Source: an uncultured delta proteobacterium
GTDB taxonomy: Bacteria > Myxococcota_A > Polyangia > Polyangiales > Polyangiaceae
Assembly (NCBI GenBank): GCA_963696385.1
Contig: CAVOKF010000004.1
Coordinates: 1,107,705 to 1,171,704, forward strand
Length of the DNA stretch: 64,000 nt
Reading direction: 5' to 3'
Positions 19,946 to 53,642 of this stretch are shown here, piece after piece. The notes beneath the pieces were generated by a model. The model saw only the letters and a program-made list of their open reading frames with translations, made no database searches and had not been told where the DNA came from. The translations under genes were made by a program, and so were the position numbers. Each line of letters opens with the position of its first letter. Positions within the stretch are counted from its first letter, which is position 1.

Positions 19946-20437
19946 TTACGACGGGGCATGATGCGACTGGTCCTGGTCGCGCTTCACCGCCGTTTCCGCA
20001 GCAGCCGCCGCTGTGAGCTCCGCGTCGTCGCCGATGCTCTCGTGCGGCAAGTCGTCAAGAAATCGGCGGCCCCCGGAAAACTGTTCGGCGACGTGCTCCA
20101 CGAACTGCTTGTAGCGGCCTTCGGCGTTCGCTCGCGCCGCCTTCTTGCCGTCATCGGGGATGTTTGGTGTGTGCGCAAACCAAACGCGGAGGAAGACCGC
20201 AAACGCCTCCGACAGAAACTCGCGCTGGCCGCGAGCTACCGCGCGACCGAGTCGGTCCAGGCGCCGCAGGACGAGCGTGGCGTCGCTCGTGCCATCGAGG
20301 TACTGCTGGACGGCGGCTAGAACGACGGCGCTCACGGTCGAATCCGTCGCCGCACAGAATCGGTCAAGACGCTTGGAGACTTCCACGTCCACATAGGGTT
20401 GCAGCCGCACGCGGCCACGTCGCACGAGTTTGGTCAT
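19946..20437 (-). CDS. CopG/RHH-type protein resembling those of Tn4371-like conjugation modules
   Basis: N-terminal RHH-like segment; RRLDRLGR...EAFAVFLRVWFAHTP...AEGRYKQFVE. Confidence 0.65.
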   Translation of the reverse strand: MTKLVRRGRVRLQPYVDVEVSKRLDRFCAATDSTVSAVVLAAVQQYLDGTSDATLVLRRLDRLGRAVARGQREFLSEAFAVFLRVWFAHTPNIPDDGKKAARANAEGRYKQFVEHVAEQFSGGRRFLDDLPHESIGDDAELTAAAAAETAVKRDQDQSHHAPS

Positions 20438-20924
20438 CAGGAAGCTCCTTCTTGGCGGCGGAAAGCTCGCAATGGGCCGGCCCAGGGCCGCCGATCGGCG
20501 ACCAATCGATAAACTCCGCAGCGTCGTACTCGGTCGACACCCGGAGCCCAGCACGAGACGGCACCAGCAGCGACAAGAAGTGTTAACGCACGCATGGGCC
20601 CTCCGCGGCGGTCGAAAACGCCCGCCTCTCCGCCCGAACACCACTCGCCAGAAAGCCCGGGCGGTTGGAACGGACAGCCAATATGAGTCCCATACTCGCT
20701 TCCGTCAAATGCGATATCAACGTTCACTCCGAGCCAATCACCGGCGGGGTTGGCCACGACGCGATGCACAGCGATCCACCCGCGGACGACGGTCAAAGCG
20801 ACTAGCCGAGGTAGGTGGTCAATTACTGACCATGGGTCAAGTCAAACCCGCCTTTCGAGGGATGCTGCACCGCTTTTAACAAGTATAACAGCAACTTATC
20901 ATACTCATGGGCATGATAAGCATA

Positions 20925-23109: not shown

Positions 23110-24023
23110 CGAGTCGTGGTGGATTCGCGGCCGTGACCGCCGCTGCTCAAGCCGAGCGCCTCGTCGCCGTCGCCGATCTCGGCGAGGGCCTGTCGCGGCT
23201 GCGCCTCGCCGACGCCTGCGCGCTGGCCGCCATGCGCGCGTCGCTCAAGCAGCACGGCCAGCTCTCCGCCGTGCGCGCGTTCGAGCGGGATGGCGCCGTC
23301 GAGATCTTCGACGGCTTCAAGCGGCTACGCGCCGCGCGAGGGCTGGGCCTTCGCGATCTGCGCGCCGTCGTCACCGACCTTGGCGCCGTCGATGCCACCG
23401 TGCAGATGCGCGAGCTGCACGCTGGCCGCGGGCTCACCGCGCTCGAGGAGGCGTGGATCGTGCGCGCCCTGCATCGAGAGCATCACGTGACGCAAGGGGC
23501 GATCGCTGCGCTGCTTCGTTGCCACAAGAGCTGGGTCTGTCGCCGCCTGATGCTGGTCGAAGCGCTCGATTCGTCGGTCCAAGCCGACGTTCGACTCGGG
23601 CTGCTCGCGCCGCGGGCAGCGATCCTCGTCGGCGCGTTGCCACGTGGCAACCAGCCGGCGGTCTCCGCGGTCGTCATCCGTCGCGGGCTCACCGTGCGGC
23701 AGACGGCCCTCTTGGTGCGCGAGCTCGCGGACGACTCGGGGCCGGGGCATGAGGCGGTGCTGGCGCGCTGGCGCGACGGGGGTCGGCCTGCGCGCCGCGG
23801 CCGCCCACGCACGGCAAGGAGCATCGCCGAGACAATCGCGCTCGACGTGACGACCATTCGACGGAGCGCGGGGCGACTTCAGGCCTGTTTGGCCGGGATG
23901 CCGCTCGACGCGTTGGGACCCGCCGCCGACGTCGTGGGCCCCGATCTCAGCAACCTCCATGGCGTGTTGGGCGGCCTGATGAAAACGATCACCGCCGTGA
24001 CCGAGAGAGCGAGCAGGGCATGA
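23106..24023 (+). CDS. ParB/Spo0J-like protein (ParB N-terminal domain plus HTH)
   Basis: SLKQHGQLSAV...IFDGFKRLRAA (Box II-like), LTALEEA, TQGAIAALLRCHKSWVCRRL. Confidence 0.8.
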   Translation: MTSRGGFAAVTAAAQAERLVAVADLGEGLSRLRLADACALAAMRASLKQHGQLSAVRAFERDGAVEIFDGFKRLRAARGLGLRDLRAVVTDLGAVDATVQMRELHAGRGLTALEEAWIVRALHREHHVTQGAIAALLRCHKSWVCRRLMLVEALDSSVQADVRLGLLAPRAAILVGALPRGNQPAVSAVVIRRGLTVRQTALLVRELADDSGPGHEAVLARWRDGGRPARRGRPRTARSIAETIALDVTTIRRSAGRLQACLAGMPLDALGPAADVVGPDLSNLHGVLGGLMKTITAVTERASRA

Positions 24024-25594
24024 CGGTGCACTGGCGCTCTCGCGAGGAATTGATCCACCAGGTCGTCGTGTTGACGGCCCAGGGGATGAGCCGGCGCGCC
24101 ATCACGCGGGCGCTGGGGGTCAGTCGGAACACGATCGAGAAGATCCTTCGGACCCACGGTCGCGAGCGCGACGACGGGCACGCCGCGCTGGCCGCTGCGC
24201 CCGTGCGCGCGCCGCGTTCCCGCAAGATCGACGCCTACCAGGGTCGCGTGAGCGAGTTGCTCGCGCGCTACCCGGACATCACCGCGCAGCGCGTGCTGGA
24301 GATCCTCAAGGACGAGGGATTCCAAGGCGGCTACACCGCCGTCAAGAAGCAGATGCGGCGCGTGCGGCCAGCGGCCAAGCCGACGCCGAGCCTCGAAGCT
24401 CCGGTGTTCGGACCGGGTGAGATGGCCGAAAACGATTGGTCGCCCTACACGCTCACGTATACGACCGGCCTCTCCGAGACTGTGCAGCTGTTCTCGTACG
24501 TCCTGGTCTATTCGAAGCGCAAGTCCTTCGACGTCTTCGGCTCGCCGGACTTGTTCGCGCTCATGGACGGCCACGAGCGCGCCTTCGCGCGCTTCGGCGG
24601 CTGCGCCGCGGGCTGCAAGTACGACAGCCAAAAGCCCGTCGTGCTCCGGTGGGAAGGCCACCAGCCCATCTACAATCCTCGGTATCTCGCCTTTGCCGCG
24701 CACTACGGCATTCAGCCCGCCGCCGTGCGAGGAAAACCCAACGCCAAGCCGCGCGTCGAACGCAGCTTCTGGGAGCACGAGCGATCGTTTCTCAACGGCC
24801 GCTCATTTCGCGATCGCGACGACTTCGCCGCGCAGCTCGCCGACTGGCTCGTTCGCGTCGTCGACCCGCGCAAGCGTCACGGGCTGTCCGCCCTCGATCG
24901 GTTTCGCGACGAGGCGCCTCATCTGCGGCCGCTGCCCAAGCATCCGTACGACACCGCCCGGGTCACGTATCGACTCTGCAGCATCGACGGGTACGTCGAA
25001 TGGCTCGGTAACCGCTACGCCGTGCCGTACGACCATGTGACCGACTTCCTGCCGCTGCGCATCACGCAGACGGAGCTGTTCGTCTACGGGCCGAATCTCG
25101 CTTGCCTGGCGCGCTATGAGCTGCGACCGCGCGGACGCGGCGACAAGATCGATCCGCTCGGGCTGCATCCTCGCCCAGAGAGCCGGTCGCCCATCGACGT
25201 CGACAAGCTGCGCGCCACCTTCGAGCAGATGGGCGACGGGGCCGCCGCGTTCCTGCTCCAGCTCTCGGGCGCCCACGTGACCCGTGTCTGGACCCACCAC
25301 GCCCGGCAGATCCTGCTCTTGCGTGCCCGCTACGACAGCGCCGACGTCGACGCCGCCCTCGCGCACGCCGTTCGGTTCGGCGCGCTCGACGCGGCCTCGG
25401 TCGAGCGCATCCTCGCCCGACGCGCTCCGCCCCGGACCCTCGACGAGTACGTCGCCGAAGACACCGCCAAGCGCATCGATGACGCGCTCGGTCCCGTCGT
25501 CACACGCCCCCGCGATCTGGCCGAGTACGACGCTCTGCCGCTCGCCACCCGCCGCCCCGTGGAGACCGCCGATGGCCAAGACCAAAACGGATAA
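24020..25594 (+). CDS. istA: IS21 transposase
   Basis: N-terminal HTH, PGEMAENDW, YDSQK, AKPRVER, NRYAVP. Confidence 0.92.
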   Translation: MTVHWRSREELIHQVVVLTAQGMSRRAITRALGVSRNTIEKILRTHGRERDDGHAALAAAPVRAPRSRKIDAYQGRVSELLARYPDITAQRVLEILKDEGFQGGYTAVKKQMRRVRPAAKPTPSLEAPVFGPGEMAENDWSPYTLTYTTGLSETVQLFSYVLVYSKRKSFDVFGSPDLFALMDGHERAFARFGGCAAGCKYDSQKPVVLRWEGHQPIYNPRYLAFAAHYGIQPAAVRGKPNAKPRVERSFWEHERSFLNGRSFRDRDDFAAQLADWLVRVVDPRKRHGLSALDRFRDEAPHLRPLPKHPYDTARVTYRLCSIDGYVEWLGNRYAVPYDHVTDFLPLRITQTELFVYGPNLACLARYELRPRGRGDKIDPLGLHPRPESRSPIDVDKLRATFEQMGDGAAAFLLQLSGAHVTRVWTHHARQILLLRARYDSADVDAALAHAVRFGALDAASVERILARRAPPRTLDEYVAEDTAKRIDDALGPVVTRPRDLAEYDALPLATRRPVETADGQDQNG

Positions 25595-26435
25595 ACCAGA
25601 CTCCAATGACCGGGTGACCGGCCCGGCCTCTGACGAGGCCGTCGTGGTGATCGATCGCCTGCGCCGGCACCTCGGCTACTTGGGCCTCTCCCATACGCTC
25701 TCCACGCTCGACGACTGGCTCGCGTGGGCCACCCGCGAGCGACCCGGACACACCGCCCTGCTCGAGCACGTCCTGGCCGCTGAGGTCAATCACAAGTCGG
25801 CCGCACGCCTGGACCGGCGTATCCGGGTCAGCGGCCTGGTCGAGCGAAAGACACTCGAGGCCTTCGACTGGGACTTCCAACCCTCGATCGACAAGAGCCT
25901 CGTGCTGGAGCTCGCCCGCCTCGACTTCGTCAGGCGCCACGACGACCTGGTCATCACGGGAAAGAGCGGCACCGGCAAGAGTCACATCCTCAAGGCTCTC
26001 TCCCTGCGCGCCTGCGTGCAGGGCATCTCCCTGCGCTACGCGCGGTGCGTCGACCTGCTCGCCGACCTGCACGCCGGCCTCGCCGACGGCACCTACCCCC
26101 GACGCCTGAAGGCCTGGGCACGACCCGACCTGCTCGTCATCGACGACGTCGGCCTGGGGCAGGTGCGCCAGCGCGACGACGAGCCCACCGCCGCCCATAC
26201 TCTCTTCAACCTCGTCGATCGCAGGCACGGCAAGCTCTCGACCGCGGTCACCTCCAATATCGATTTGCGCCAGTGGGGACGCTACCTGGGAGACGCGACC
26301 GTCGCCGCCGCCATTCTCGATCGGCTCGCCATGCATGCCATTCGTATCGACATCGACGGACCGAGCTACCGCCAGCACGTCGCTGCCGAGCGTGCCGGCA
26401 AGCCGGTCGCACCCACTCGGGCGACGGCGCCGTGA
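25572..26435 (+). CDS. istB: IS21 helper ATPase
   Basis: GKSGTGKS, LLVIDDVG, TSN, AILDRL. Confidence 0.93.
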   Translation: MAKTKTDKPDSNDRVTGPASDEAVVVIDRLRRHLGYLGLSHTLSTLDDWLAWATRERPGHTALLEHVLAAEVNHKSAARLDRRIRVSGLVERKTLEAFDWDFQPSIDKSLVLELARLDFVRRHDDLVITGKSGTGKSHILKALSLRACVQGISLRYARCVDLLADLHAGLADGTYPRRLKAWARPDLLVIDDVGLGQVRQRDDEPTAAHTLFNLVDRRHGKLSTAVTSNIDLRQWGRYLGDATVAAAILDRLAMHAIRIDIDGPSYRQHVAAERAGKPVAPTRATAP

Positions 26436-26746: not shown

Positions 26747-26981
26747 TAGCCGGACTCCCGCACTGAGCCGCGGGCCCGAGCGCTCGCGAGTCCTACCGGC
26801 GTCTTGGCGGTTCCCCCCTTCGCCCGGCCGAGCACCTCGGGGTGAGCCACTGGCCCTGACGCGCGCCCTTTCCGATAGCCAGGGGTGGGTCACGATCCCG
26901 CCGCTGCCGCCACCCCGACCCCGGCGACGGGTGGATCACTTCGGTCGCCAGAAGTGGATCACTCTAAAGGCGCCGCTGAAG

Positions 26982-27355
26982 GTTTCGGTGCGGAACTCCG
27001 GCAGGCCGTGGAGAATCGCGCCGAGACGCTGCGGCAACTGGGCATCGAGCCCGACGACCCGAGTCGGCTTGCCGCTCTGCGCGAGCGCGAGCGGAGGGCG
27101 GTAGGAGAACAAATGGCGGCGAGCTTGGGGCAGAAATTTGTCGGGCGTATGCCGGAGCGCTTCCGCGGGCGCGTTGAAATCCGCGTGGCGCCCGGCGGCT
27201 TCTCGTACGCCGTCATCTCCGACGGTTCGCGCTTCGGCGTGATGGAGACCACGGCGTCGCTGCGCGCCCTGCGAGGCAAGTCGGTCGTGCTCGCCCGTGA
27301 CTCCAAAGGCAGGCTCGTCGTTCGCCCGGATCTCGACCGAGGGCTCGGGCGCTGA
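26982..27355 (+). pseudogene. C-terminal remnant of a DUF3363/VirD2-like relaxase, cut by IS21
   Basis: GFGAELRQAVENRAETL...LAALRERE...YAVISDGSRF...DRGLGR. Confidence 0.65.
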
Positions 27356-27888: not shown

Positions 27889-27937
27889 GGTCGCACCGAG
27901 CCTGGTCGGAGCGCAGATGGCATGTCAAGGGCCCGTT

Positions 27938-28029
27938 CAAAGCCTGCCGGTCGACGAAGAGCCGCGGAAGTCGGCGCGGAAACATATCGCGTTTTAGGGG
28001 CGTCCACTGTCGGTTCAGAGTCCCATTTG
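27938..28029 (-). repeat. dif-like repeat, site A (core 27977-28004, spacer AACGCG)
   Basis: Reverse complement reads GACGCCCCTAA-AACGCG-ATATGTTTCCG. Confidence 0.85.
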
Positions 28030-28424
28030 GCGTCCCCGAGGGCGCCAAGCTGGCCGCTCGGCAAGCTGCGGAGGGCCAGCGGAAGCAGTTTGTGGCGCAC
28101 CTTGCCGACCGGTTCTCGGATGGCCACCGCTTCACGGACGGTTTGCCGCAAGGGGGCGACGGCGGAGAGGACGAGCCCGGGCCCGCATAGGATGGTTTGG
28201 CGTTGGGTCGACCGCGAGAGGGAGGTCCGCGGTCGTGACTGTCGTGACCGACTCGATGGCGGCAGACGTGCGGTCCCGCATCGGTCTGCGGGAGGCCAAC
28301 GGCGACGACCGCTGCGGTGGCCGCGTCACCCCCGGGACAGGACCGGGTCACCCGACGCGGATGGCTTTCGCCGTGAAATCCAGTCGCGTGAGCGTGGCAC
28401 GAAAATGGGCGTGTTCGAGCGCCC

Positions 28425-30127
28425 GTGGCTGCTCTCGCGCCCGCCTACGTTCCCCGTCGCCCGACCGAAACGGTCCTGTACGGATTGGTGCGCGAGAATC
28501 TGGAATCGTTTCTCGCGTACGCGCGTGAGAACTACGAGGGAGGGCTACCGCGCTACGTGGAAGCGGAGCTGCGCGCGTACTTGAATTGCGGCGTATTGCG
28601 TGCGGATTTACGCGCTGCCACTGCGACTCATGCGGCCGCGACTTGCTTGTGGCCTTTAGCTGCAAGGGAAGATCTCTCTGCCCCAGTTGCTGCGGCAGGC
28701 GTATGGCCAACACGGCTGCCCACTTGGTCGACCGAGTCTTGCCCGACGTCCCTGTGCGGCAATACGTTCTGTCGCTCCCGTACGAGCTGCGCAAGCTTGC
28801 GGCGTTAAAGGCCGACGTTCTCACAGCCCTGGGCCGCATCTTCGTCGAGGCCATCTTTGCCCGCTACCGCGCTCGCGCCCAGCGCGAGGGCCTCGAGGAT
28901 GCGCAGTGCGGAGCGGTAACCTTTGTTCAACGCTTCGGCAGTCTGAATCTCAACGTGCATTTTCACGTGTTGGTGCTCGATGGCGTCGTGACCCGGGACC
29001 CGGACCGTCGTGTGCTCTTTCATCCGGCGGCCGCTCCGACGCCGGTCGAGTTCGAGGTGCTGGTCGAGCGTGTGATGAACCGCAGCGTGGCGTGGCTGCG
29101 CCGCCACGGCCATGTGCAGGACACGCCGCTCGAAGAGCGCTCGAACGAGCCGCCGGCGCAGACTGCCCTCGACGCGTGCGCGGACATCGCCATGGGCCGC
29201 GGCACAGTCGCAACCTTGTCGAACGACGACGACGGGTCGAAGGACGACGACCGCGAGGCGCGGCCCGACGGGCTCGTCGGCGCGGTCGAGCGAGACGGGT
29301 TTAATGTGCATGCCGGGGTCCGGATCGAAGCGGGCGACCATCTGGGTCGCGAACGACTGGCGCGTTACGGCGCGCGACCTCCGCTCTCGCTCGAGCGACT
29401 TCGCAGGTTGCCCGGCGGGCGGGTGGCCTATCGACTGAAGTACGTCCGTCGCGGCCGAGGCAAGTACAGAATCATGACTGGCCTGGAGTTCATGGCCCGC
29501 TTGAGCGCGATCATTGCGCCGCCTCGGTATCCGTTGGTGCGCTACAGCGGAGTGCTCGGGCCACACTCGAGCTGGCGACGCGACGTGGTGCCGAAGCCGC
29601 GCAAGACGGCTCCCGCCTGCCACCGCGCGCCCACCCCACCGCTGAGCTCGGCCAAGCCGGTCACCGGCGCAATGACGCACCCGGGCTCCGCGCTTCCCGG
29701 GGCGGCGGCGCCGACAGCGGGAAATGTCGAGAGTGCTCCGGCGCCGGCCGCCAGTTCCTCGGCGAAGGCGGGTCTGTCCGCGCTCCCCATCTTCGCGCAT
29801 GGGGGCGAGGTCATCCCGCTCACGCCCAATGTGCTTGCTGTCAGCCACTGGGAACGGCTGCTCGGCGGCGCCATCTACGCGGCCTCGCCGCGCGTGGACT
29901 GGCCCACGCTCTTGAAACGAACGTTTGACGTGGACGTTCTGCAATGTCCGAAGTGCCACGGCCGACTGCGGGTGCTCGCCGTGATCACCGAGCGCGAGCC
30001 GGTGCGCCAGGTCCTCGCCCATCTCGGCCTGCCGACCGAGGCGCCGCCCGTCGCCCGGGCGCGCGACCCGACTGACGACGCGCAAGACCCCGAGCCGTCG
30101 GATCAACTCGAGCTGCAGCTCGCGTGA
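28425..30127 (+). CDS. IS91/ISCR-like Y2 (HUH) transposase, frameshift near 28598
   Basis: Zn-binding CxxC/FSCKGRSLCPSC, RQYVLSLP, QRFGSLNLNVHFH, YGARPP, RYSGVL, C-terminal CPKC. Confidence 0.9.
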
Positions 30128-30193
30128 ACGACCGGCCCCGAGAGCGGCGCCGATGCGGCGCCGCGCGGGCGACGTGCGCTTTGGATATGTTCG

Positions 30194-30301
30194 AAATCGG
30201 TTCGCCGCTCGGTGACAACGGAAGCCCCTAAGACGCGATATGTTTCCGCGCCCGCTTCCGCGGGCTCTTCGTCGACCGACAGCTTTGGGCTTACTACTCG
30301 C
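30194..30301 (+). repeat. dif-like repeat, site B (core 30221-30248, spacer GACGCG)
   Basis: GAAGCCCCTAA-GACGCG-ATATGTTTCCG...CTACTCGC. Confidence 0.88.
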
Positions 30302-30793
30302 CCGCGTCCGTCGCAGCGTCGGGAATGGTGCTTCCTTCGACGGTCGCGGACGCTGAGCAACCGCACGCGAACACCGCAACAAGCAAGATGCCGTGCGCTA
30401 TTCTTCGATCCATCGGAACCACCCTTCCGGTCACGCCCCCCGGCGCTGGCGCGCGCGAGGGTTCTCATCACACTACCCGCGTCTATCCAACTCTTCGAGC
30501 CACTGCGTCGCTGCGGCGACGAAAGCGCGGCCCTCGGCACTCGGCACGATGGATCGCTACGCCGACCGTGCGCCGTTTGTAGCTGGCCCGGTCCCTGAAG
30601 CGCACGAACGCGGTCACGTATTCGTGTGCCTGTCCACCGTTCGGGCCGGCGCCGTCGTAGTAGCGACACGGGGTGGGGCTTCGTCCGCCAGGAAAAAGGC
30701 CGGCCCGGGGGGGTCATCGCCTGCCCTTGCCAATCCGAAGCTCGCTTTCGAGCGTCACGAAGGCCATCGCGGAGCGACGCGCCCCGTTCACGC

Positions 30794-30821
30794 CGTAAAC
30801 AATCTCAACTTTAGGGGGCGA
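30794..30821 (-). repeat. Degenerate dif-like core overlapping the toxin stop codon
   Basis: TCGCCCCCTAA-AGTTGA-GATTGTTTACG. Confidence 0.45.
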
Positions 30822-31197
30822 GCGGCTCTGGCCACCATTCGCGGAAATCGTGGGCTGAAAGCTTCTCTCGGGCACCGGCGCGGGCGAGAAGCTGAAGCTT
30901 TTCCCACAGGACCAGCGGGCATCGAATGGGGGGTGTCTCGCGGCACTCGAGCTCGTCGACACGTCGCACGTGCAGTGCGCTTTGATAAAAGTACGTCTTC
31001 TTGCTCAACCGGAGCGGCTTGTTGGCTCGCCGTTCCGGGTCCACCACCTCGTGCGGAATATCCCGGGGGCCGGTTCCGGTCCCCGAAAGGACGAGCGCTC
31101 GGGTTCCGTCGGCCGACAACCTGATCACGATGGCCGGATGCGGCTCTCCGCCAGAGTTTGGGACGATCCAAACCTTGTCGGCAATGTGCAGGGTCAT
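30811..31197 (-). CDS. Putative PemK/MazF-like toxin
   Basis: DKVWIVP..GEPHPAIVI...ALVLSGTGT...LRLSKKTYF; directly coupled to the upstream gene. Confidence 0.5.
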   Translation of the reverse strand: MTLHIADKVWIVPNSGGEPHPAIVIRLSADGTRALVLSGTGTGPRDIPHEVVDPERRANKPLRLSKKTYFYQSALHVRRVDELECRETPPIRCPLVLWEKLQLLARAGAREKLSAHDFREWWPEPLAP

Positions 31198-31995
31198 CTA
31201 CTGGATCGTTGCCGTCTCAGTGATGTACGCTTCAAAGAGAGCCTCGCCTTCGTTGTGATCGCTGATGATCTGCTCTTGTCGGAAACGCTGATCGGAAGGT
31301 ACGAGGTCTTCAGGTACGCCAGCGTCGCCGTACATCATTGCGAGCATGCGGACCACCGAACGCTCGCCCTTGACCCAGCCTCGCGCGACGGCTTCAGTAA
31401 GCCAACGCGGCGGCGATGGGCGATCCGAAAGGACGAGGTCCACGAGTGCCGCCAGGCACGCGGTACCCTGCGCGTGCGCCAGAACGGCGTTGAGCAAGGG
31501 AATTGGAAGAGCGTAAAGATCGAAGCCCTCCCAGGCAGCCCCGCTAGCCTTAGGGTCAGGAGCCGAACGAGCATGCCGTCCGAACAAGCCGGAGATAACC
31601 GCGCCGATTCTGAGCCCCGCGAGCAGATCCGTGACGAGCCCGCTCTCCTCCGGCACCTTCGCGCACACGGCTCGCATGAAAGTCACCGGATCGGCAATCC
31701 TGGCAAAGCGACCTGCGTACAAGGTCGCCGAGACCGTCCGTGCGGACTGGGAGGCTTGCAGGTCGTTCGCCTGGGCATCGAGAATGTCGAGGAAATCGGC
31801 CTCGTCTGCCGCGGTCCAGACAAGCGAGCCGATGACGCGTGCCGTTCTGCGCGCTTCGTCGATTGACGAAGGTGACTTGCTCCTCCGAAGATGCGCCTTC
31901 TGAACCCGGCGTTCATGGCGGTTCACGACTGATAGCCCGAGCAGCCACTTCTTTTCGGCCGCGTAGTCGTCAGATAGCTGCGCCAGCGCGTTCAT
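31198..31995 (-). CDS. Hypothetical protein, partner of the PemK-like gene
   Basis: 265-aa ORF whose TAG abuts the next ATG. Confidence 0.6.
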   Translation of the reverse strand: MNALAQLSDDYAAEKKWLLGLSVVNRHERRVQKAHLRRSKSPSSIDEARRTARVIGSLVWTAADEADFLDILDAQANDLQASQSARTVSATLYAGRFARIADPVTFMRAVCAKVPEESGLVTDLLAGLRIGAVISGLFGRHARSAPDPKASGAAWEGFDLYALPIPLLNAVLAHAQGTACLAALVDLVLSDRPSPPRWLTEAVARGWVKGERSVVRMLAMMYGDAGVPEDLVPSDQRFRQEQIISDHNEGEALFEAYITETATIQ

Positions 31996-32047
31996 CGGTC
32001 GTGGAATTCTAGCACGCGGAATTGGCCTGCGTTTTCGCTGTCGCACG

Positions 32048-32154
32048 GCGAGTACTAAGCCCAAAGTGCGTCGGTCGACGAAGAGCCCGCGGAGGCGGGC
32101 GCGGAAACATATCGCATCTTAGGGGCTTCCGTTGTCACCGAGCGGCGAAAGATT
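32048..32154 (-). repeat. dif-like repeat, site C (core 32102-32129, spacer GATGCG)
   Basis: Near-identical inverted copy of site B. Confidence 0.88.
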
Positions 32155-32350
32155 AGATGAACCGGTGGCGGCGCGTCCTGGACCGCCAGGCACGCCGCGC
32201 GGCACGGGTGCCGCAGCCTCGAGATCGATCGCGGGGCGTCTCGAGAGCAGCCCCCGTGCCGGTCGTCGGTCATCGAAAATAGCGACCGACCTCCCGCTGG
32301 ATTATCCATCCGACACCCCGGCGTGCTCAAAGGCACAAAGCGAAGTGGGG

Positions 32351-32460
32351 GCGAGTAGGCGGCGCAAAGCTTGTCGGCCGACGAAGAGACGCGGAAACCG
32401 CCGCGGTCACATAAAAGGCCTTTGGGGCGCTCGTTGTCATTGAAAGCGCCGTCCCAATTG
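32351..32460 (-). repeat. dif-like repeat, site D (core 32404-32431, spacer GGCCTT)
   Basis: AGCGCCCCAAA-GGCCTT-TTATGTGACCG...CTACTCGC. Confidence 0.8.
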
Positions 32461-32489
32461 CGCACCGCCGTCCCGCTTCACGGTGCGCT

Positions 32490-32599
32490 CAAATCGGTTC
32501 GCCGATTCAGCGATAACGAACGCCCCTAAGACGCGATATGTTTCCGCTGGGTCTTCCGCTGCTCTTCGTTGACCGATACCCTTTCGACTGGCTACTCGC
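32490..32599 (+). repeat. dif-like repeat, site E (core 32519-32546, spacer GACGCG)
   Basis: CAAATCGGTTCGCC...AACGCCCCTAA-GACGCG-ATATGTTTCCG...CTACTCGC. Confidence 0.88.
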
Positions 32600-32774
32600 C
32601 AATTGAGCGTTCGCCGATTCGAGTCGGAGGTTGGCTGGTCCCCATCGATGATGATCTGCTCCGAGGTGCCCGCTCGCCTCTCCGGCGCATCGCGAACTTC
32701 CTGCGCGCGCGCCGTAACCGTCCGGCCGGGCCCGCACTTGATTTAGGGGCAGAAAGCGCGGTGCGATCGGGGGC

Positions 32775-33095
32775 ATGGGACGCGAGCGTCGGTCGCGAGT
32801 CTGGTGGTCAAGCCGAGTGGCGCGTTGGCGGCGCAGCGGGCTTACGGCGCGGCAATTCGCAGAGAGCGAAGGGCTTTCGGTGTTCTCGCTTCGGTGGTGG
32901 TCGAGCCAGTTGGCTCGTGATAACCGTGCGGAGCACGGTGCGTCGGCGATCGAGCCGATCGAGATCACCGTCGAGGGGCGTCAGGCCGGCCGCGAACTGG
33001 TCGAAGTCGTGGTCGGCGCGGCGACGATCCGCTGCGAGCGGGGGACGGACGTCGGATACATTGCGGCGCTGGTTCGTGCGATCGCGGGTGCATGA
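32775..33095 (+). CDS. tnpA: IS66 accessory protein TnpA
   Basis: WRRSGLTARQFAESEGL..LRWW. Confidence 0.85.
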   Translation: MGRERRSRVWWSSRVARWRRSGLTARQFAESEGLSVFSLRWWSSQLARDNRAEHGASAIEPIEITVEGRQAGRELVEVVVGAATIRCERGTDVGYIAALVRAIAGA

Positions 33096-33457
33096 CGGTG
33101 TTCGGTTTCTCGCCTCACGTTCGCGTGTACCTCGCGTCGCAGCCGGTCGACATGCGTGCAGGCCACGACAGTCTGTTCGCGATCGTGAAGAGCTGGGACC
33201 TGAATCCGTTCAGCGGGGACCTGTTTGCGTTCGTTGGGAAACGACGAGACCGGGTGAAGATTTTGGTGTGGCACCGCGGGGGATTTTTATTGGTCTACAA
33301 GCGGTTGGAAAGAAATCGATTTCGGATCCCTGCGATCCAGCCGGGAACGCGGACGGCGATGCTCGATGCGACGCAGCTGGCGATGTTGCTCGATGGCATC
33401 GACGTCCAACACGTTCAACGCCCCGCGCTGTGGCAGCCTCCGGGTCTGGCGCGCTGA
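33092..33457 (+). CDS. tnpB: IS66 accessory protein TnpB
   Basis: PVDMR..., LFAFVGKRRDRVKILVW, KRLE. Confidence 0.92.
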   Translation: MTVFGFSPHVRVYLASQPVDMRAGHDSLFAIVKSWDLNPFSGDLFAFVGKRRDRVKILVWHRGGFLLVYKRLERNRFRIPAIQPGTRTAMLDATQLAMLLDGIDVQHVQRPALWQPPGLAR

Positions 33458-33564
33458 GCCCCGTCGCGGCCCTGTGTGTCCATTGGACACTTTGTCGCTG
33501 AAATCGTCGTCGGCCCCCACGCTAAGCCTTTTAATCTGCGCGGCGATGGTGCACGAAAAGGATC

Positions 33565-35169
33565 GTGGTTGATGCGCGAGACGTCCGCATCGCGAAGCTT
33601 GTGGAGCTGCGCAAGCGCGCCGAAGAGCGTGAGCGACAACTGGGCGAGATCGTCGCGCAGCAGCAGACGCTGATCGCTGCGCAGCAGCAACTCATCGCCG
33701 AGCTGCAGCGTCGACTGTCCGAGCAAGATGCGCAGCAGAAGGCGCGCGCCGAAGAGATGAAGGCCGAGATCGACCGGCTGGAGCGGCAACTGTTGGGCCC
33801 GAAGACCGAGCGGACCCACGTTCCGCCGATCGACGCCGAGCTTCGCAACACCGAACCGATGACCGACGAAGAGCGCGCGCGCCGTCGCGAAGAGATTGCA
33901 CGCAAGCGACGCGAACGCGCACTCGCGAAGAACGCCGCGATGGCCGTCGAGCAGGTCGAGTACCCGGTACCCGAATCGATGAAGCCGTGCGCTCATTGTG
34001 GCGGCGTGCATGCGCGAGCTCTCGAGCCCGAGCAGAGCACGACGTACGAGTACAAGCCGGGTCACTTCATCCGTCGTGTGCACAAGCGGCAGAAGCTCGC
34101 ATGCAGCTGCGGCCAGTCCATCGTGACGGCGCCGCCGCCTCCGAAGCTCGTCGTCGGTGGACAGTACGGCTTCGGGTTCGCCGCATTCCTCATCGTGGAG
34201 AAGTGCGCCGACTCGATTCCCATTCATCGCATTGAGAAACGATTCGGCCGACTTGGGATCCCGATCTCGCGCAGCACGATGAACGATCTCGTTTACAAGG
34301 CTGCCGAGATTGTTCGACCGCTCGTCGCTCGACTGCAGACGCGAATCGCGGCTCTCGAAGTCGTGCTCGCCGACGAGACCTCGATGCGCTTGCAGGACCG
34401 TCCCAAGCGCGGCTTTGTCTGGGTGTTTCACGGTCACGATGAAGTCAGCGGCGGCAAGCTTGTTCTGTATGCCTTCGCCGTCGATCGAAGCGGCGACACG
34501 CCGGCGAAGATCCTGGGTGGCACTCGCGGCACTCTCGTGGTGGACGGATACACGGGGTACAACCAGGTGACCGACCCGCTCGGACGCGCGCGCGGCGGAT
34601 GCTGGAGCCACATGCGCAGAAAGCTCTTCGAGGCGCGCTCCACCCGTGCGGCCGAGGACATCGACCCCGCGCTCGGGATCATCCGCGAGATCTTTCGTGT
34701 CGAACACGACGCGACCGAGCAGAAGATCGTCCGCACTCCGGCCCATCTCGAGCTGCGAAATGCGCGTAGCGCTCCGCTGGTCGAGCAATTCTTTCAGTGG
34801 GCCGAACACAAGAAGGTCGAGGTCCTTCCGAAGGGCCCGCTCGGCGAGGCGCTCGGTTACGCGATTAACCAACGCGCTCGACTCGAGCTTTTCTTGTCGG
34901 ATCCGCGTATTCCGATGCACAACAACGGCTCAGAGTCCCGCTTACGCGTTATTGCTCTGGCTCGCCATACGTACCTTTTCTTCGGACATCCACTCGCGGG
35001 CAAAAACTTCGCGGGGCTCTACTCGCTCGTCGGCTCCTGCATCGCCAACGAAGTCGAGCCGACGGAGTATCTCACCGACGTACTTGCCCGAGTCCGCGAC
35101 GCAACGACCGACGAGCAGCTCGACGCGCTGCTACCCGATCGGTGGGCGCCACACGGTCCAGCGCCCTGA
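33565..35169 (+). CDS. tnpC: IS66 transposase TnpC
   Basis: Coiled coil, CAHCG, ADET, VDGYTGY, CWSHMRRK, HNNGSE. Confidence 0.93.
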   Translation: MVDARDVRIAKLVELRKRAEERERQLGEIVAQQQTLIAAQQQLIAELQRRLSEQDAQQKARAEEMKAEIDRLERQLLGPKTERTHVPPIDAELRNTEPMTDEERARRREEIARKRRERALAKNAAMAVEQVEYPVPESMKPCAHCGGVHARALEPEQSTTYEYKPGHFIRRVHKRQKLACSCGQSIVTAPPPPKLVVGGQYGFGFAAFLIVEKCADSIPIHRIEKRFGRLGIPISRSTMNDLVYKAAEIVRPLVARLQTRIAALEVVLADETSMRLQDRPKRGFVWVFHGHDEVSGGKLVLYAFAVDRSGDTPAKILGGTRGTLVVDGYTGYNQVTDPLGRARGGCWSHMRRKLFEARSTRAAEDIDPALGIIREIFRVEHDATEQKIVRTPAHLELRNARSAPLVEQFFQWAEHKKVEVLPKGPLGEALGYAINQRARLELFLSDPRIPMHNNGSESRLRVIALARHTYLFFGHPLAGKNFAGLYSLVGSCIANEVEPTEYLTDVLARVRDATTDEQLDALLPDRWAPHGPAP

Positions 35170-35621: not shown

Positions 35622-36836
35622 TTATTCGATGCTTGCTCGGGCGATCAGCTCGTCCGGGCGTTCGTTTAGGAGCTCCGAGCAGGTACCGCCGATGGCGTAC
35701 GACGCGATTTCTTGTTTGAGAACACGCACGAGTGACCCGTCGAGCTCGGATCGAAATATAGCAAAAAGTCGTTCTGCAGGGCCCTCCGGATCCTTCGTGG
35801 CGAACACTACCCGTCGCAGGGATATGTTGTTTCTCAAGCCGGCAGCGATCAGGTACTTGAAGTGCCCGTCAGAGGCTGGAATTGAGAAACCGAGGATACC
35901 GATCCGAGTCGCATCGGTGAGGGCTTTCACCGCGTCGTCCCACACGAAGGCCAATGCGCCGTCGAAGTTTTTCTGCCAGGTCGGCGGAACAATCAAAGGG
36001 ACGTATCGGGCCCCCAAAAGGTCTCGGTACGTCTCGTAATCCTTCAGGAGCCTCGTGTCCGGGATCTGGCTTCGCGGATTATCGGATCCGCTCGGGCGCG
36101 CCCAATTTATCGAGCCGTGCAGTTTGAGCAGTTTGACGCAGCGCTCGTGCGAGGGCCGCTTCTCGTCGTTCGCATCGATCGTACCATAGTTCCAGTCGAT
36201 ACCGAGCGCGGTCAGCGCGGTTTCGATGACCAAGTCGTAGTTGAACGTAATGATCGTAATGCGGCGGCGCGGGTCGTCGGCCCAGACGCGGCCGGTCAAG
36301 AAGGCGTAGGTCAACTCGCTCAGGGAACGGTCGATGATAACGATCGGTTGCTGGGGCGCGTTGATCGGCATGGGCCCGCGCATAGTCGCCGCGATTGTCT
36401 GCGTCGGTTGTTCGTCTGCCACATGCTGCCAGGACGGGGGTGCCGTCCAGCTTGGACCACTGTTTCGAGGAACACCCACTTTTCCGTGTGCAGCGCGAAA
36501 CCCGGCCGAATAGTCGAGAGTCGACGCGATGGCGATCTTGACGTCGTCCATCAGGCCATTGCTTTCGCTGGCGGCTGCGAGACTGAACAGTTCCTCGATG
36601 TTCTCCGGATCCACTTGGACGCGGTAGGCGGCTGACGCGATCTCGTGCCGAAACGCCAAGACGTTCTGTATCGCCCTCTGCTCGCGCTCGCGACCGTCTT
36701 GGTCGTCAAGCCAGTCAAGTGCGTCTCGCATGCGATTGAGAAAGTTCGCGACGACCGGCATGCCTGCGTCGACCGAGGCGCCCGCGCCAAGGATGTAGAC
36801 GACATTGTGATTGTAAAGGTCAGGTCCCATGCCCAT
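35622..36836 (-). CDS. SIR2-like (SIR2_2) domain protein, probable defence NADase
   Basis: ILGAGAS..AGMP, ITFNYD, LKLHGSINW, IVPPT, ILGFS. Confidence 0.85.
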   Translation of the reverse strand: MGMGPDLYNHNVVYILGAGASVDAGMPVVANFLNRMRDALDWLDDQDGREREQRAIQNVLAFRHEIASAAYRVQVDPENIEELFSLAAASESNGLMDDVKIAIASTLDYSAGFRAAHGKVGVPRNSGPSWTAPPSWQHVADEQPTQTIAATMRGPMPINAPQQPIVIIDRSLSELTYAFLTGRVWADDPRRRITIITFNYDLVIETALTALGIDWNYGTIDANDEKRPSHERCVKLLKLHGSINWARPSGSDNPRSQIPDTRLLKDYETYRDLLGARYVPLIVPPTWQKNFDGALAFVWDDAVKALTDATRIGILGFSIPASDGHFKYLIAAGLRNNISLRRVVFATKDPEGPAERLFAIFRSELDGSLVRVLKQEIASYAIGGTCSELLNERPDELIARASIE

Positions 36837-37103
36837 TCGGATCGCGAGCGTAACTGGAGCCGCCGAATCTTGCTGCCGCCGGCGAGTGCCCGGGGCCAAG
36901 GGTCGCCAGCGATCCGGCGAAGGCGATACGCGGATCAGCCGGTGGCGATACGTTCTGTACGGCGCGCTGTCGGGTCACGCAACCGAGAATCGTGGGGCAA
37001 AGCCGAGTCCTCCAGAACCAGTGCCCCAGTGCCCTGTAGTGGGCGGAGCGAACGCCCGGGTCATCTCGGTCATCTCGGAACCGCTGCCCGAGTCAGGCGA
37101 GCT

Positions 37104-37146
37104 CAAATCGGCCGCTCGGTGACAACGGAAGCCCCTAAGACGCGAT
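37104..37146 (+). repeat. dif-like repeat, site F left half (cut by IS4)
   Basis: CAAATCGG...GAAGCCCCTAA-GACGCG-AT followed directly by IS4. Confidence 0.85.
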
Positions 37147-38622
37147 CATAAGTTGGTACTTAGGGATTCGGGATGGCGCTCGCTACCACACAAGTGCGAG
37201 TGGCTCGAGGCCCATAGCGAGACGTCCGCGCTTTCGATCGCGAGCAGGATGAGCGCGGCGCGCGTTGGAATCGAGGAACTTGAGCGCTTCGGCGAGGGCA
37301 CGACGCAATTGGCGCGGTGAGTCGAGGAGGCCGCGGAGGACATCGTCGAAGTAATGCTTGCCGGACGCGGCGGCTCGCTGGGTCGAAAGCTCCACCCCCA
37401 GCGACGCTTCCGCGAAGTGTGCGAGCGAGCGTTTCAGAAGGGCTGCGAGCAGGCTCGCCCATATCATCGCTTTCGCGATAGCGGCCTTGCCCGTATCGAA
37501 GGCATGAAGGTTGGCGTGAGATTTGAACTCTTTGAACAGGAGTTCCACCTGCCAGCGGAGGCGATACAAGCCGGCCACGTCGGCGGCGGAGAAGCGCTTG
37601 CGAGCGAGGTTGCTGTGCAGGTACACGAACGTCTTCGCGTTGCGCTTGCCGCGCTTGTAGATCGCCACAATTCGCCCGCGATACACGAATGAATTCGCCT
37701 GCCATTCGATGTCGAGATCGACCGTGTGGGCCGGAAGCAGGTCCCAGTTCAACTTCTGGCCGAGCAACTTGGGGATGGATTTGCCGGCGCTGTCGAAAGC
37801 GGCCCGAATGGTGGGTCGAATGTTTTTGGTTCCGCGGACGATGAAGGCGCCGCCCGCTTGGTCGACGTCGAAAAAGAATTTTCGCTCCTCGTACCCTCGG
37901 TCGGCCAGAAAGAGCCGCTCGCGAAGACTCGCGGCCTCGGGACGGTAGGTTCGCTCGGTCTCCTTGTCGGCCGTCAGGGCGACGATGCGCACATCGTCTT
38001 GGAGCAGACTCATCGTGACGTGCAGTTCCACGGCGGCAGGCGAGATTTTTGTAAAGCGGCCCGGCCATGTGCCTTTCAAGTCGTCCTTGAGCGCGAACGA
38101 CGTCCCGTCGTGAATGACGATGTCCCGAAAGGTCGACAGTTTGGGGGACACGGCGTGCAGAACCGGCTGGCTCATCTTCTGTACCGTCGCTTCCAGCAGC
38201 ATCCGAAACATCTCTGGAAAGGACGCTTGCGCGAGCCGGTTGTGAAAGGGCTTATATCGCAGCGAAAGGCCCGCGAATTTCCGGAACGTCCGCAGAATAT
38301 CGGCCAACCACTTGGCGTGGCCCGACCCGAGCGTCGACAGCACCGCCACGACCATCGCCAGCGGCATCACCTTGCGCACTCGCCGTAGCCAGCCGCTACG
38401 TCTCGCGATCGCGGTCACCTCCTCCTCGCCGAGTACTTCCGTAAGCCGTTTCGCATACACGCCGACTCCGGCGCGTGTACTGTTTGATCCGTGCATCGGG
38501 GGTCTCCTTTCGCGTTGTCTCACAACAGCGTCTAGAGAATCCCCGATGCCTTTGACTATCCAATTCGTGCACTATGCACGTAAGTGATCGAGATCACTCG
38601 GGAAATAAAGATCCTACCTATG
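37147..38622 (-). mobile_element. IS4 family element
   Basis: IRs CATAAGTTGGTACTT / CATAGGTAGGATCTT (reverse complement). Confidence 0.9.
37183..38496 (-). CDS. IS4 family transposase
   Basis: HDGTSF, LADRGY, YRLRWQVELLFKEFKS (YREK motif). Confidence 0.93.
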   Translation of the reverse strand: MHGSNSTRAGVGVYAKRLTEVLGEEEVTAIARRSGWLRRVRKVMPLAMVVAVLSTLGSGHAKWLADILRTFRKFAGLSLRYKPFHNRLAQASFPEMFRMLLEATVQKMSQPVLHAVSPKLSTFRDIVIHDGTSFALKDDLKGTWPGRFTKISPAAVELHVTMSLLQDDVRIVALTADKETERTYRPEAASLRERLFLADRGYEERKFFFDVDQAGGAFIVRGTKNIRPTIRAAFDSAGKSIPKLLGQKLNWDLLPAHTVDLDIEWQANSFVYRGRIVAIYKRGKRNAKTFVYLHSNLARKRFSAADVAGLYRLRWQVELLFKEFKSHANLHAFDTGKAAIAKAMIWASLLAALLKRSLAHFAEASLGVELSTQRAAASGKHYFDDVLRGLLDSPRQLRRALAEALKFLDSNARRAHPARDRKRGRLAMGLEPLALVW

Positions 38623-38694
38623 AACGGGTTATATGTGACCGCCGCGGTTTCCGCGGCTCTTCGTTGATCGATACGCTTTCGACCGGCTACTCGC
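38623..38694 (+). repeat. dif-like repeat right half (spacer CGGGTT)
   Basis: IS4 end followed by AA-CGGGTT-ATATGTGACCG...CTACTCGC. Confidence 0.85.
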
Positions 38695-38876
38695 TCCTTG
38701 CCTCCCCGCCATCGCGAGGACCGTCATCGACGCCACAACATCGCGACGACCGTCGCATATTCCGGCGTGGCTCAGGCTGTCGTTCCAATGTAGCATCGCG
38801 ACGTGAGGGGACCCTTGTCAATCGCCGTCCAGACCGCGACAGCCGCGGCGCGCAATTGGCGCTGGTAGCTACCGGC

Positions 38877-39602: not shown

Positions 39603-39712
39603 CAAATCGGTTCGCCGATTCAGCGATAACGAACGCCCCTAAGACGCGATATGTTTCCGCGCCCGCTTCCGCGGCTCTTCGTCGACCGACGCACTTTGGG
39701 CTTACTACTCGC
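39603..39712 (+). repeat. dif-like repeat, site G (core 39632-39659, spacer GACGCG)
   Basis: Full-length copy. Confidence 0.88.
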
Positions 39713-39714
39713 TC

Positions 39715-40335: not shown

Positions 40336-40846
40336 GTATCCACTGCACGAATCGGCGAGTAGCCGGTCGTTGAGCAGTTCGCCAATTTGGTCCGCCTTCA
40401 GCTCGAACCTCCCGTTGGCGGTTGGCCCATAAGAAGTCCTATGTGAAGACGGCTCCCTTGCCAGCTCGCGCCCGCTTGCACGGCCTATCCGCCCGAGTCG
40501 TCGCCGAAAGAAGGGCAGTCCACGAGCCGCTGGCGAGAGTTCTTAGGCCGCTCGCCGCTCAAGCAGGGCCTGCTGGCAGCAAGGCCCTTGCGCCAGCTCC
40601 ACGGTGCGCATCTCTTGGTCGACGACTTGCAGGGACATCAGGGGTCGAAGTGTGCCTGCACGCAAGCGTCTGCCGGGAAACACCGCGCTAATGGTGAGAA
40701 GCCCAACAGAATCAAGTAGGTCGTAGAGGAAGCACCTCAAAAACATCCCCATTTAGCGTTTCGCGAAATACCTGGCTGCGCTCTTGCATCTGCAAAACCG
40801 AGCGGGGCGGTGGATACCGATCAGTGACCGCAAGGGAGTGACTCCG

Positions 40847-53211: not shown

Positions 53212-53531
53212 ATGAAATCGGCCCATTTCAAGCCGGAGACGAGCGCACTCGTCTTGATCGACCACCAAGTCGGCACGTTGCAGCTCGTGAAAAACCTGCC
53301 TTCCGACGTGTCTCTTCGCAACACCGTCAACCTCGGAAAGGCGGCGAAGGCGCTCGGCATGCCGGTCGTGATGACGTGTAGCCAAGAGGACCGCATCCAA
53401 GGGCCGATCGCGCCATCGCTTCAGCGTGTCCTTCCCGAGGCGTACGAGAAACGCATCCGACGACAGGGCGTCGTCAACGCGTGAAGCGATCCGAAGTTCC
53501 GGCAAGCTGTTGTGGACACCGGCCGAAAGCT
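53212..53531 (+). pseudogene. YcaC-like isochorismatase hydrolase, nonsense codon and truncated at site I
   Basis: ALVLIDHQ...VNA*SDPKFRQAV..TGRK (TGA where the conserved W is expected). Confidence 0.8.
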
Positions 53532-53642
53532 CAAATCGGTTCGCCGATTCAGCGATAACGAACGCCCCTAAGACGCGATATGTTTCCGCGCCCGCCTCCG
53601 CGGGCTCTTCGTCGACCGACGTGCTTTGGGTTTACTACTCGC
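53532..53642 (+). repeat. dif-like repeat, site I (core 53561-53588, spacer GACGCG)
   Basis: Full-length copy, near-identical to site G. Confidence 0.88.

Follow-up and report, generated by a model that had tools for sequence, protein, structure and literature searches.

The transposase locus and its repeats

The subject of this report is a transposase gene of the IS91/ISCR family and a repeat of about 110 nt that accompanies it in a 64,000-nt stretch of Polyangiaceae DNA, the whole of which is called the window below. The genome from which the window was taken (G000) amounts to 6.9 Mb in 8 contigs. The gene lies at 28425-30127 on the plus strand and is frameshifted near 28595, and it is read in two open reading frames (ORFs), 28425-28808 and 28586-30127. 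In a Pfam search, the ORFs between the repeat copies A and B introduced below scored above the cut-offs for Y2_Tnp (83.5 bits, cut-off 20.9) and Zn_Tnp_IS91 (44.6 bits, cut-off 26.3), which identifies an enzyme of the HUH-Y2 type. The NCBIfam scores were under the curated cut-offs (239 vs 925 for ISCR clade Ia, and 85 vs 125 for IS91), and the protein was 36-37% identical to the transposases of ISCR1 and ISVsa3 (ISCR2). The closest named relative of the locus is a Polyangiaceae metagenome-assembled genome.

Using tblastn, four long transposase copies were found in G000: the window copy (copy 1), copy 2 at C4:36433, copy 3 at C6:130997 on the minus strand, and copy 4 at C2:127124. Copy 4 is interrupted, and further transposase fragments are also present. 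The open frame of the window copy comprises 532 aa, compared with 578 and 585 aa in sister copies, and the extra T after 28595 was found in contigs of four out of four metagenome runs, which stem from four studies. The intact copies 2 and 3 could provide the enzyme in trans.

Sequence reading and alignment revealed one repeat of about 110 nt, termed the module, in five copies A to E at the places given by an earlier note on this DNA; copy C was not named there. Module A (27921-28030, minus strand; nhmmer match and alignment) belongs to a diverged subfamily, has its dif-like core at 27977-28004, and has a degenerate terminus, CCCTTGACATGCC instead of CTACTCGCC. Module B (30194-30302, plus strand) follows the transposase gene; its core, at 30221-30248, reads GAAGCCCCTAA-GACGCG-ATATGTTTCCG, and its terminus is at 30285-30302. 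Module C (32047-32149, minus strand; core 32102-32129) is 98% identical to module B over 80 nt and lacks its first 8 nt, because an IS110-family element sits between CAAATCGG and TTCGCC. Module D (32350-32459, minus strand) is a member of the AATTGGG subfamily with the core AGCGCCCCAAA-GGCCTT-TTATGTGACCG at 32404-32431, and module E (32491-32600, plus strand; core 32519-32546) is a member of the AAATCGG subfamily. The alignment bore out the earlier observations that A and D start alike, with CAA(A/T)TGGGAC, and that B and E share AAATCGGTTCGCC.

An nhmmer profile built from the five copies yielded 95 matches in G000, 50 of them near full length, so that the repeat family is present far beyond chance. 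Rather than being distributed along the chromosome, the matches cluster at contig ends and in mobile-element islands. Folding of 44 unique copies (RNAalifold with DNA parameters) revealed essentially no conserved structure on either strand; because single-copy folds vary between subfamilies, no structural claim is made for the module.

The right end of the element

The position of module B relative to the gene turned out to be a constant feature. A module in the orientation of the gene is found about 60 nt past the stop codon of every transposase copy or fragment in G000. In the window it is preceded, at 30174-30193 on the plus strand, by a conserved box in the 3' untranslated region (UTR), GTGCGCTTTGGATATGTTC(G), which ends in GTTC and right after which solo modules start. 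Pairwise blastn comparisons showed that homology among the G000 copies of the insertion sequence (IS) stops at the outer end of the module, at 30301-30304.

Transposase homologues were present in 195 of 401 genomes of the order, and the 3' flanks were read at 18 homologue loci with identities of 38-91%. All 18 had the same layout, namely a GCTTTGGA-like box, GNTC, 100-150 nt, and a terminus of the CCTAYNCNCC type, which is degenerate in some loci (e.g. CCTGATCTCC in L052) and is cut by the contig end in L062. The GNTC was followed by A in 17 of the 18. IS copies within four other genomes (G098, G014, G276 and G001) cease to align exactly at the module terminus.

The terminus itself is of the ISCR type. 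Module B ends with TTT-N6-(C)CTAC-TCGCC, 175 nt past the stop codon, and the ends of ISCR1 (GGTTTATACTTCCTATACCC) and ISCR2 (GCGTTTATTCTTCCTATACG), read from two plasmids, lie about 230 nt past the stop. The pattern TTT-N6-CCTAY-NC, with the same motif spacing, is common to ISCR1, ISCR2, module D (GCTTTGCGCCGCCTACTCGCC) and module B (GCTTTGGGCTTACTACTCGCC). The earlier note had likened the outer end GCGAGTAG to the terminus of IS91; here the comparison was made with the ends of ISCR1 and ISCR2 only. For IS91-like elements, a 17-bp oriIS, i.e. the origin of transposition, is placed 167 bp past the coding sequence in PMC5737581. The common layout, the co-termination of the copies and the ISCR-type terminus lead us to regard the repeat as the oriIS-bearing right-end module of an ISCR-like element of the IS91 family. 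The earlier view that no ISCR-type oriIS follows the gene was thus mistaken, and ordinary IS91-type ends are present, since the repeat is the element's own oriIS end. That the homologues keep the downstream repeat also means that the transposase is not a mere passenger.

An alternative is that the module is an independent repeat, such as an Xer-type cassette boundary or a REP- or attC-like sequence, and that the IS91-like element targets the GNTC in front of it. The junction of body, GTTC and module indeed resembles a canonical IS91 insertion of the form oriIS-GTTC, similar boxes precede the GTTC and the terminus, the identities of IS bodies disagree with those of the modules and subfamilies are swapped between them, and two other types of IS do target the module. 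However, a co-diverged module is carried by 18 of 18 homologues from many genera, the IS copies co-terminate at the module end in five genomes, and the CCTAY motif at the right distance from the stop codon is on the module terminus and not on the GTTC box. Furthermore, ISCR1 and ISCR2 have AAATCG or ATTGGG about 95-127 nt before their ends, as at the module start, no integron integrase was found, and the modules cluster in mobile-element islands. We regard an independent repeat as improbable.

The corresponding sequences are CCAAATCGAACC, about 127 nt before the oriIS terminus of ISCR1 (L107, 2636-2652), and GGATTGGGTTGC, about 95 nt before that of ISCR2 (L108, 2634-2650). They resemble the two module start motifs CAAATCGGTTCGCC and CAATTGGGACGGC, and a right-end unit of about 110 nt may be old in the ISCR group.

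The left end and the inverted copies

Less can be said about the left end. All four G000 copies start to align at about 28296-28306 (blastn boundaries), which defines a left-end region of 28296-28424 on the plus strand. The upstream context differs among the four, and no clean boundary or palindrome could be delimited for terIS, the left end of the element. Copies 1 and 3 share more sequence on this side, because both sit behind homologous copies of a gene termed gene X. In the window, a comparison of the copies and their translations revealed a 3' remnant of gene X (28031-28190, plus strand) that is cut off by module A. Gene X is intact directly upstream of the transposase gene in copies 2 and 3 and in the homologue L039 (91% identical). 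It encodes a putative ribbon-helix-helix protein of about 150 aa, as judged by eye, and no Pfam family matched; in copy 2 (C4:35795-36265) it comes after what looks, also by eye, like a coupling-protein gene. Gene X is also tied to positions 19946-20644 of the window (minus strand). It could be part of the IS, as orf121 is of IS91, or a favoured neighbourhood inside a conjugative element.

These comparisons bear directly on the model of the earlier note, in which the element lies between the inverted dif-like sites A and B, the pair D-E is its miniature, and integration occurs via Xer as in integrative mobile elements exploiting Xer recombination (IMEX). Inverted copies do flank the transposase gene in copy 1 and, at another distance, in copy 4, and the sites carry a mimic of dif. 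The reported hairpin of the D-E spacer (32460-32490) is present as well; it is made by GTGCGC(TC) extensions that precede modules D and E, GCGCACCG...CGGTGCGC. The entire D-E stretch folds into a single extended hairpin (about -70 kcal/mol), reminiscent of the folded attP of the CTX phage. However, the upstream inverted copy is absent from copies 2 and 3 and from L039. Sites A and B do not bracket the transposase alone either: A abuts and truncates gene X, its terminus is degenerate, and it is not the left end of the element, because its AAAT end joins the interior of that gene. D and E belong to different subfamilies and represent the sole head-to-head pair with a spacer of at most 50 bp among the 95 matches, which speaks against a miniature of A...B. 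Lastly, the host dif contains no insertion, and the end of B is an ordinary oriIS of the ISCR type. The sister copies therefore largely refute the model, and we assign it a very low probability. Of the expectation that homologues would carry the repeat in their flanks, the downstream half held, whereas the framing pair is missing from two of the four G000 copies and from the closest foreign homologue.

Solo modules and co-oriented arrays

Only 8 of the 95 matches are preceded by the 3' UTR of the IS, and the remainder are solo modules. Their 5' edge is sharp, AAAT(C/G)GG or AATTGGG, and matches the point just past the GNTC in the parent IS. The nucleotide before the module is C in 46 of 50 copies, T or C occupies position -2 in 48 of 50, and no preference is seen at positions -3 and -4. 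At the 3' edge the modules read CTACTCGC(C/T), with variants that depend on the subfamily, and unrelated sequence follows.

Solo modules were also found in other genomes. In G098, a member of another genus, 40 of 92 candidates were scored, and at least 41 module matches were obtained, compared with 3-4 transposase copies. The G098 solos are 94-100% identical to the module of its own IS, which differs from the G000 module, and in each genome compared the solos match the IS module of the same genome. At least 21 matches were found in G288, a member of the same genus. A search with module E in a sample of 200 other genomes of the order, in which G288 and G319 were not included and at most 4 candidates were scored per genome, gave no copy.

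The placement of the modules relative to the IS copies is not random. When the 60 kb on the downstream side of each of the four G000 copies were counted, 18 modules had the orientation of the IS and 6 the reverse, whereas the 60 kb upstream contained 3 and 12, respectively. In G098, each of the three IS copies is followed by an array; of the 41 modules listed, 30 lie downstream in the orientation of the IS, 2 lie downstream in the reverse orientation and none lies upstream. One pair of modules in this genome is directly tandem.

The window contains such an array. Its order is B, then C and D on the minus strand, E, a split module (37100-37146, 5' half, and 38626-38695, 3' half; plus strand), and two solo modules detected by nhmmer, at 39603-39714 (plus strand, co-oriented with B and E) and at 53528-53644 (plus strand, likewise co-oriented), the latter being the last of the array within the window. 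Two genes without assigned function, an IS66, a SIR2-like gene, and OB-fold, dehydrogenase and regulator genes lie between the modules. The two former genes are ORFs on the minus strand, 30811-31197 and 31198-32064, the second of which more likely starts near 31995. Neither matched a Pfam or NCBIfam family, and both are single-copy in the genome, as blastn found only the query itself. A metagenome contig of 2755 nt (run X3, record 22) covers 30301-32085 and continues from the B terminus with about 977 nt that are unlike the window. The contig points to a variant in the population with a different left neighbour of the two-gene segment.

Imperfect palindromes of about 110 nt in direct arrays also brought to mind an integron or a cluster of attC sites lacking an integrase (CALIN). 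This reading was rejected, as there is no integrase and the repeat is an IS end. The integron integrase model TIGR02249 had no match over its cut-off in this 96%-complete genome, and the GTTRRRY/RYYYAAC pair was not seen at the module ends upon inspection by eye. Repetitive extragenic palindromes (REP) mobilized by REP-associated tyrosine transposases (RAYT), including their doublet form (REPIN), were rejected as well: the enzyme is an IS91-type Y2 and not a Y1 RAYT, only one doublet exists among 95 matches, and the copies are located in mobile-element islands.

The core of the module resembles the probable dif site of its host

The central 28 nt of the module match the probable dif site of its own host in the order XerC arm, 6-nt centre and XerD arm. 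The host sites had to be located for this comparison. The G000 candidate, C3:50569-50596, reads AAGGCCCCTAA-GGAACA-TTATGTGAACT. It is situated downstream of a gene whose C-terminal translation resembles a UvrD-type helicase (by eye), and the maximum of the cumulative skew of the contig is about 40 kb away. The site is 100% conserved over 36 nt in G288, where its flanks are 93% identical, and related sites occupy the same locus in G240 and G319 and a position 9 kb off in G360. It was not found with up to 3 mismatches in 60 genomes of the family, and was kept as the candidate because of the synteny within the genus. In each of G098, G103, G244, G276, G322 and G030 there is one site outside modules, (A/T)TCGCATAA-GAT..A-TTATGT(A/T)AACT, with the centre TTATGA in G030. 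The two G000 sites that best fit the textbook consensus, C7:603464 and C5:38499, were dropped as they are not conserved in five relatives.

The XerC arm of the probable dif sites is unusually variable between species (GGCCCCTAA, GCCGATAA and CCCGCTAA; L112, L114, L115 and L128). G319 has two dif-like sites about 190 nt apart and G288 has extra DNA on either side of its site, as if small Xer-dependent elements sat at dif.

The similarity was initially scored with a degenerate dif consensus, and the E. coli site was read at the K-12 locus. Against this consensus, the window copies had 9-11 mismatches, which is not significant, as 13% of random 130-nt windows reach 10 or fewer. Among the 18 homologue modules, 6 had at most 7 mismatches to the consensus, compared with 0 of 720 control windows. 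The six best cores lie 70-140 nt past the stop codon, and five of them share one orientation. The comparison with the probable host dif was more informative: the window cores agree at 15-17 of 22 arm positions (17 for module D), whereas only 1 of 1500 random 230-nt G000 windows reaches 15. Across genomes, identities to the arms of the own host were 15-19 of 22. The highest value was found in G098, where the module ACTTCGCATAA-GATGGA-TTCCGTAAACT and the probable dif AATTCGCATAA-GATACA-TTATGTAAACT agree at 19 of 22 positions. Moreover, 18 of the 21 non-self sequences in G000 with at most 5 mismatches from the host dif arms are module cores. A dif-like site outside the modules, GGCCCATAAGAAGTCCTATGTGAAG at 40424-40448 of the window, has 4 mismatches to the host dif arms and is the only non-module match that close.

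Host and module also agree in their variants of the XerC arm. The arm is CCCCTAA in G000, whose modules read CCCC(T/A)AA, and CCGATAA in G240 and G360, and the variant TCGCATAA is found in both the dif site and the module of G098, G244 and G030. The G103 module, TTGCATAA, has one mismatch to it. The exception is L039, which has a core of the G000 type in G319; this would fit a recent transfer. Across the 44 unique G000 copies, conservation is highest in the arms and the 6-nt centre varies (classes GACGCG, GGCCTT, GGCGTT, CCCGTT and others), and several modules have retained the XerC arm better than the XerD arm. The genome contains XerC-like and XerD-like genes with scores of 310 and 314 bits, just below the equivalog cut-offs. 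The dif likeness of the core, including its host-specific variants, is therefore supported, as far as comparisons between sequences can support it.

It is conceivable, albeit rather doubtful, that this likeness has no Xer function and that the core is a subterminal palindrome or a binding site for the transposase or another host factor. The oriIS regions of IS91 and IS801 are described as holding two imperfect subterminal palindromes (PMC13181058), and the motif ATAA-N6-TTAT is itself palindromic. It would also agree with this explanation that no Xer-type junctions were found, that linkage breaks outside the centre of the core, and that the core is missing from some related modules. However, the arms of L048 and L063 are not complementary (TTCC opposite ATAA), and yet each matches its dif arm. 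In addition, the cores track host-specific XerC-arm variants in three states, and the ends of ISCR1 and ISCR2 are similar to E. coli dif only at background level (11-13 of 22).

Proposed mechanism

Together, these findings led us to the following interpretation. The repeats are right-end modules of an ISCR-like IS, solo modules and arrays arise through oriIS transposition, and the core imitates the host dif; we estimate the probability of this reading at roughly 70%. The autonomous element would extend from about 28300 via the HUH-Y2 gene and the conserved 3' box ending in GTTC to the module ending in TTT-N6-CCTAC-TCGCC.

For the IS91 family, the layout terIS-tnpA-oriIS and a start at oriIS are described in PMC13181058, according to which the final 82 bp of IS91 are sufficient and termination is often unsuccessful. 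IS801 is reported to give right-end fragments of 229, 360 and 679 nt, which begin at an internal tetranucleotide and transpose in vivo (PMC3189936), and in the case of ISCR28 a gene that lies between two sequential oriIS ends is said to be captured by them (PMC12772301). By analogy with IS801, the transposase would start at oriIS. An early stop at the internal GNTC would yield a bare module, which could then be moved in trans, and a stop at the next upstream oriIS would move a unit of cargo plus module that is bounded by two co-oriented origins. Such units would land beside existing oriIS ends and thereby generate co-oriented arrays downstream of IS copies. Host XerC and XerD would be predicted to bind the module. 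Most plausibly, they would resolve the tandems or cointegrates to which rolling-circle and one-ended transposition give rise, or exchange units among modules; they are unlikely to mediate integration at the chromosomal dif. Action of the dif mimic as a host factor site at the origin is a further option beside resolution and unit exchange.

Several observations weigh against this interpretation. With regard to transposition, none of the IS91 target tetranucleotides (CTTG, GTTC or GTCC) was found to abut oriIS in 50 copies, the 3' flanks of which are variable. The YC preference sits at the 5' side of the module, which would imply a strand polarity opposite to that of textbook IS91. An empty site was found neither by flank pairing within the genome nor in two genus-wide searches, in which the solo loci returned only other mobile DNA. 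No target-site duplication was seen around the modules, again with no empty allele for comparison. The 5' junction of several solos lies in recognisable sequence, namely gene X or another module, the continuation of which is missing on the 3' side, so that simple insertion is not demonstrated and rearrangements between copies must be common. The identities of body and module are discordant: copies 1 and 2 are 96.9% identical overall and 89% in the module, and copies 1 and 3 are 91.4% and 95% identical, respectively. It follows that modules recombine or get swapped.

With regard to Xer, the host dif sites are themselves probable sites, identified by conservation and synteny. The module centres (GACGCG, GGCCTT and others) are unlike the host dif centre GGAACA. 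Module halves reassort between copies. The linkage break, near position 30 and on the outer border of the XerC arm, separates a 5' block of about 30 nt from a 3' block of about 80 nt; as it lies outside the centre of the core, it lends no support to Xer exchange. A recognisable core was not found in the related modules L042, L046 and L074. No module or IS is located at the host dif: the sole module match on C3 is at 483 kb, and no transposase match is near C3:50569. No Xer-made junction was found. The metagenome contigs break at the repeats and contained no interpretable excision or inversion joint; the apparent joints were other module copies. In summary, of the earlier proposal to combine rolling-circle chemistry with dif-like sites, the dif-like core and the many non-autonomous copies stand, whereas integration at dif and Xer-made junctions are not supported.

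A more far-reaching possibility, which we consider unlikely, is that XerCD and the ISCR-like transposon together run an integron-like cassette system in Polyangiaceae. Each 110-nt module would then be both an HUH origin and terminator and an Xer recombination site. Units would be captured from origin to origin and lined up in co-oriented arrays behind the IS, and XerCD would subsequently excise, exchange or resolve them at mimics that co-evolve with dif.

Other mobile DNA at the locus

The surroundings of the element in the window are a patchwork of mobile DNA. Upstream are an IS21 with IstA/IstB-like genes (24020-26435) and a DUF3363 remnant (26885-27355), and downstream are the IS66 (32775-35169) and the SIR2-like gene (35622-36899) of the array.

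The IS110-family element that shortens module C is represented by its start, about 200 bp of 1.78 kb (32150-32349, plus strand), and is cut off by module D. Over 213 bp, this segment shares 98.6-100% identity with five further copies in G000, and metagenome contigs continue into an intact element at 32352. The element has a 465-aa open frame, and a related copy at 55856-57376 of the window matches Transposase_20. It inserts at one fixed point of the module, CAAATCGG / TTCGCC, in 5-6 copies with 98.5-99.7% identity (e.g. C6:114304-116190), and the sequence at its far end, CGGTTCAGAGT, is similar to that with which modules of the A-type subfamily start.

An IS4-family element of 1477 bp (DDE_Tnp_1; 37147-38625 in the window) interrupts the split module, the halves of which come from different subfamilies. 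About 20 copies or fragments are present in G000. Its insertion duplicates 10 bp, AAGACGCGAT or AACGGGTTAT, around the middle of the dif-like core. Roughly half of the complete copies are in module cores and the others are at TAA-N6-8-TA sites; as the latter lie outside modules, the element is not strictly core-specific. Half modules had been considered as Xer hybrids, and this was rejected: they are modules split by this element, with the duplication centred on the core. Four modules have a tandem duplication of TAAGACGCGAT (e.g. C4:46435 and C2:103535), which looks like an excision footprint of the IS4-family element.

Comparison with known systems

IS91/ISCR elements are major movers of accessory and resistance genes, and the processing of their circular and tandem products is poorly understood. 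An origin end that changes along with the host dif would predict a direct role of XerCD in rolling-circle transposition, be it in multimer or cointegrate resolution or in cassette exchange, and the covariation of modules with dif would be an unexpected link between two DNA-moving systems. A bare oriIS end might multiply to high copy number as a non-autonomous element and build arrays of genes. In the annotation of myxobacterial genomes, repeats of this kind are easily confused with attC sites, REP sequences or miniature inverted-repeat transposable elements.

By its sequence features, the element is a member of the IS91/ISCR family with a non-canonical feature set. In common with ISCR1, ISCR2/ISVsa3, IS91, IS801 and IS1294, it has an HUH-Y2 transposase with the IS91 zinc domain and an oriIS past the stop codon; as in the family in general, long terminal inverted repeats are absent and the left ends are variable. 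In contrast to the family, there is no GTTC or CTTG after oriIS, and a GNTC is found inside the IS before the module instead. Unlike those of ISCR1 and ISCR2, the right end mimics the sequence of the probable host dif, and, unlike in the family, the bare right-end module is present at about 90 copies, in arrays.

The CTX, VGJ and TLC phages and the gonococcal genomic island (GGI), all of them IMEX, as well as the plasmid Xer sites cer and psi, likewise combine a site resembling the host dif with the lack of an own recombinase. In contrast to IMEX, the element described here is not located at the chromosomal dif, has no hybrid dif flanks and, as its anatomy indicates, would move by its own HUH transposase.

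Like the modules, the miniatures of IS801 (PMC3189936) are oriIS-end fragments that begin at an internal tetranucleotide, and they are described as moved by the transposase in trans. They differ in that they are reported there to be 229-679 nt long, transient in a trap assay and rare in genomes, whereas here a fixed 110-nt unit is present in dozens of copies in at least three genomes, and the tetranucleotide is not carried along.

Among the papers listed by full-text searches, none had a title or listed abstract that links an IS91/ISCR end with a mimic of dif, and the nearest case is attC at the ends of ISCR28. In the sandwich units of ISCR28, two sequential oriIS ends capture genes and a tyrosine-recombinase site is placed at or right after the ISCR gene (PMC12772301). 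In contrast to the present case, where a dif mimic is found in a genome without an integron integrase, that site is an integron attC, a statement given with 'data not shown'. In this sul4 paper, Xer is mentioned in connection with xerC and xerD as outgroups of a tree (PMC12772301). Some IS91 elements are reported to encode an integron-like tyrosine recombinase of their own (bioRxiv 10.1101/542381).

The pdif modules of Acinetobacter and the dif-targeting IS1202 family (PMC10132070) also resemble the situation in G000, with scattered dif-like sites, gene units between them, and insertion sequences that land in them. However, pdif sites are described as bare 28-mers in alternating orientation, whereas the sites described here form part of a 110-nt transposon end and are mostly in direct orientation.

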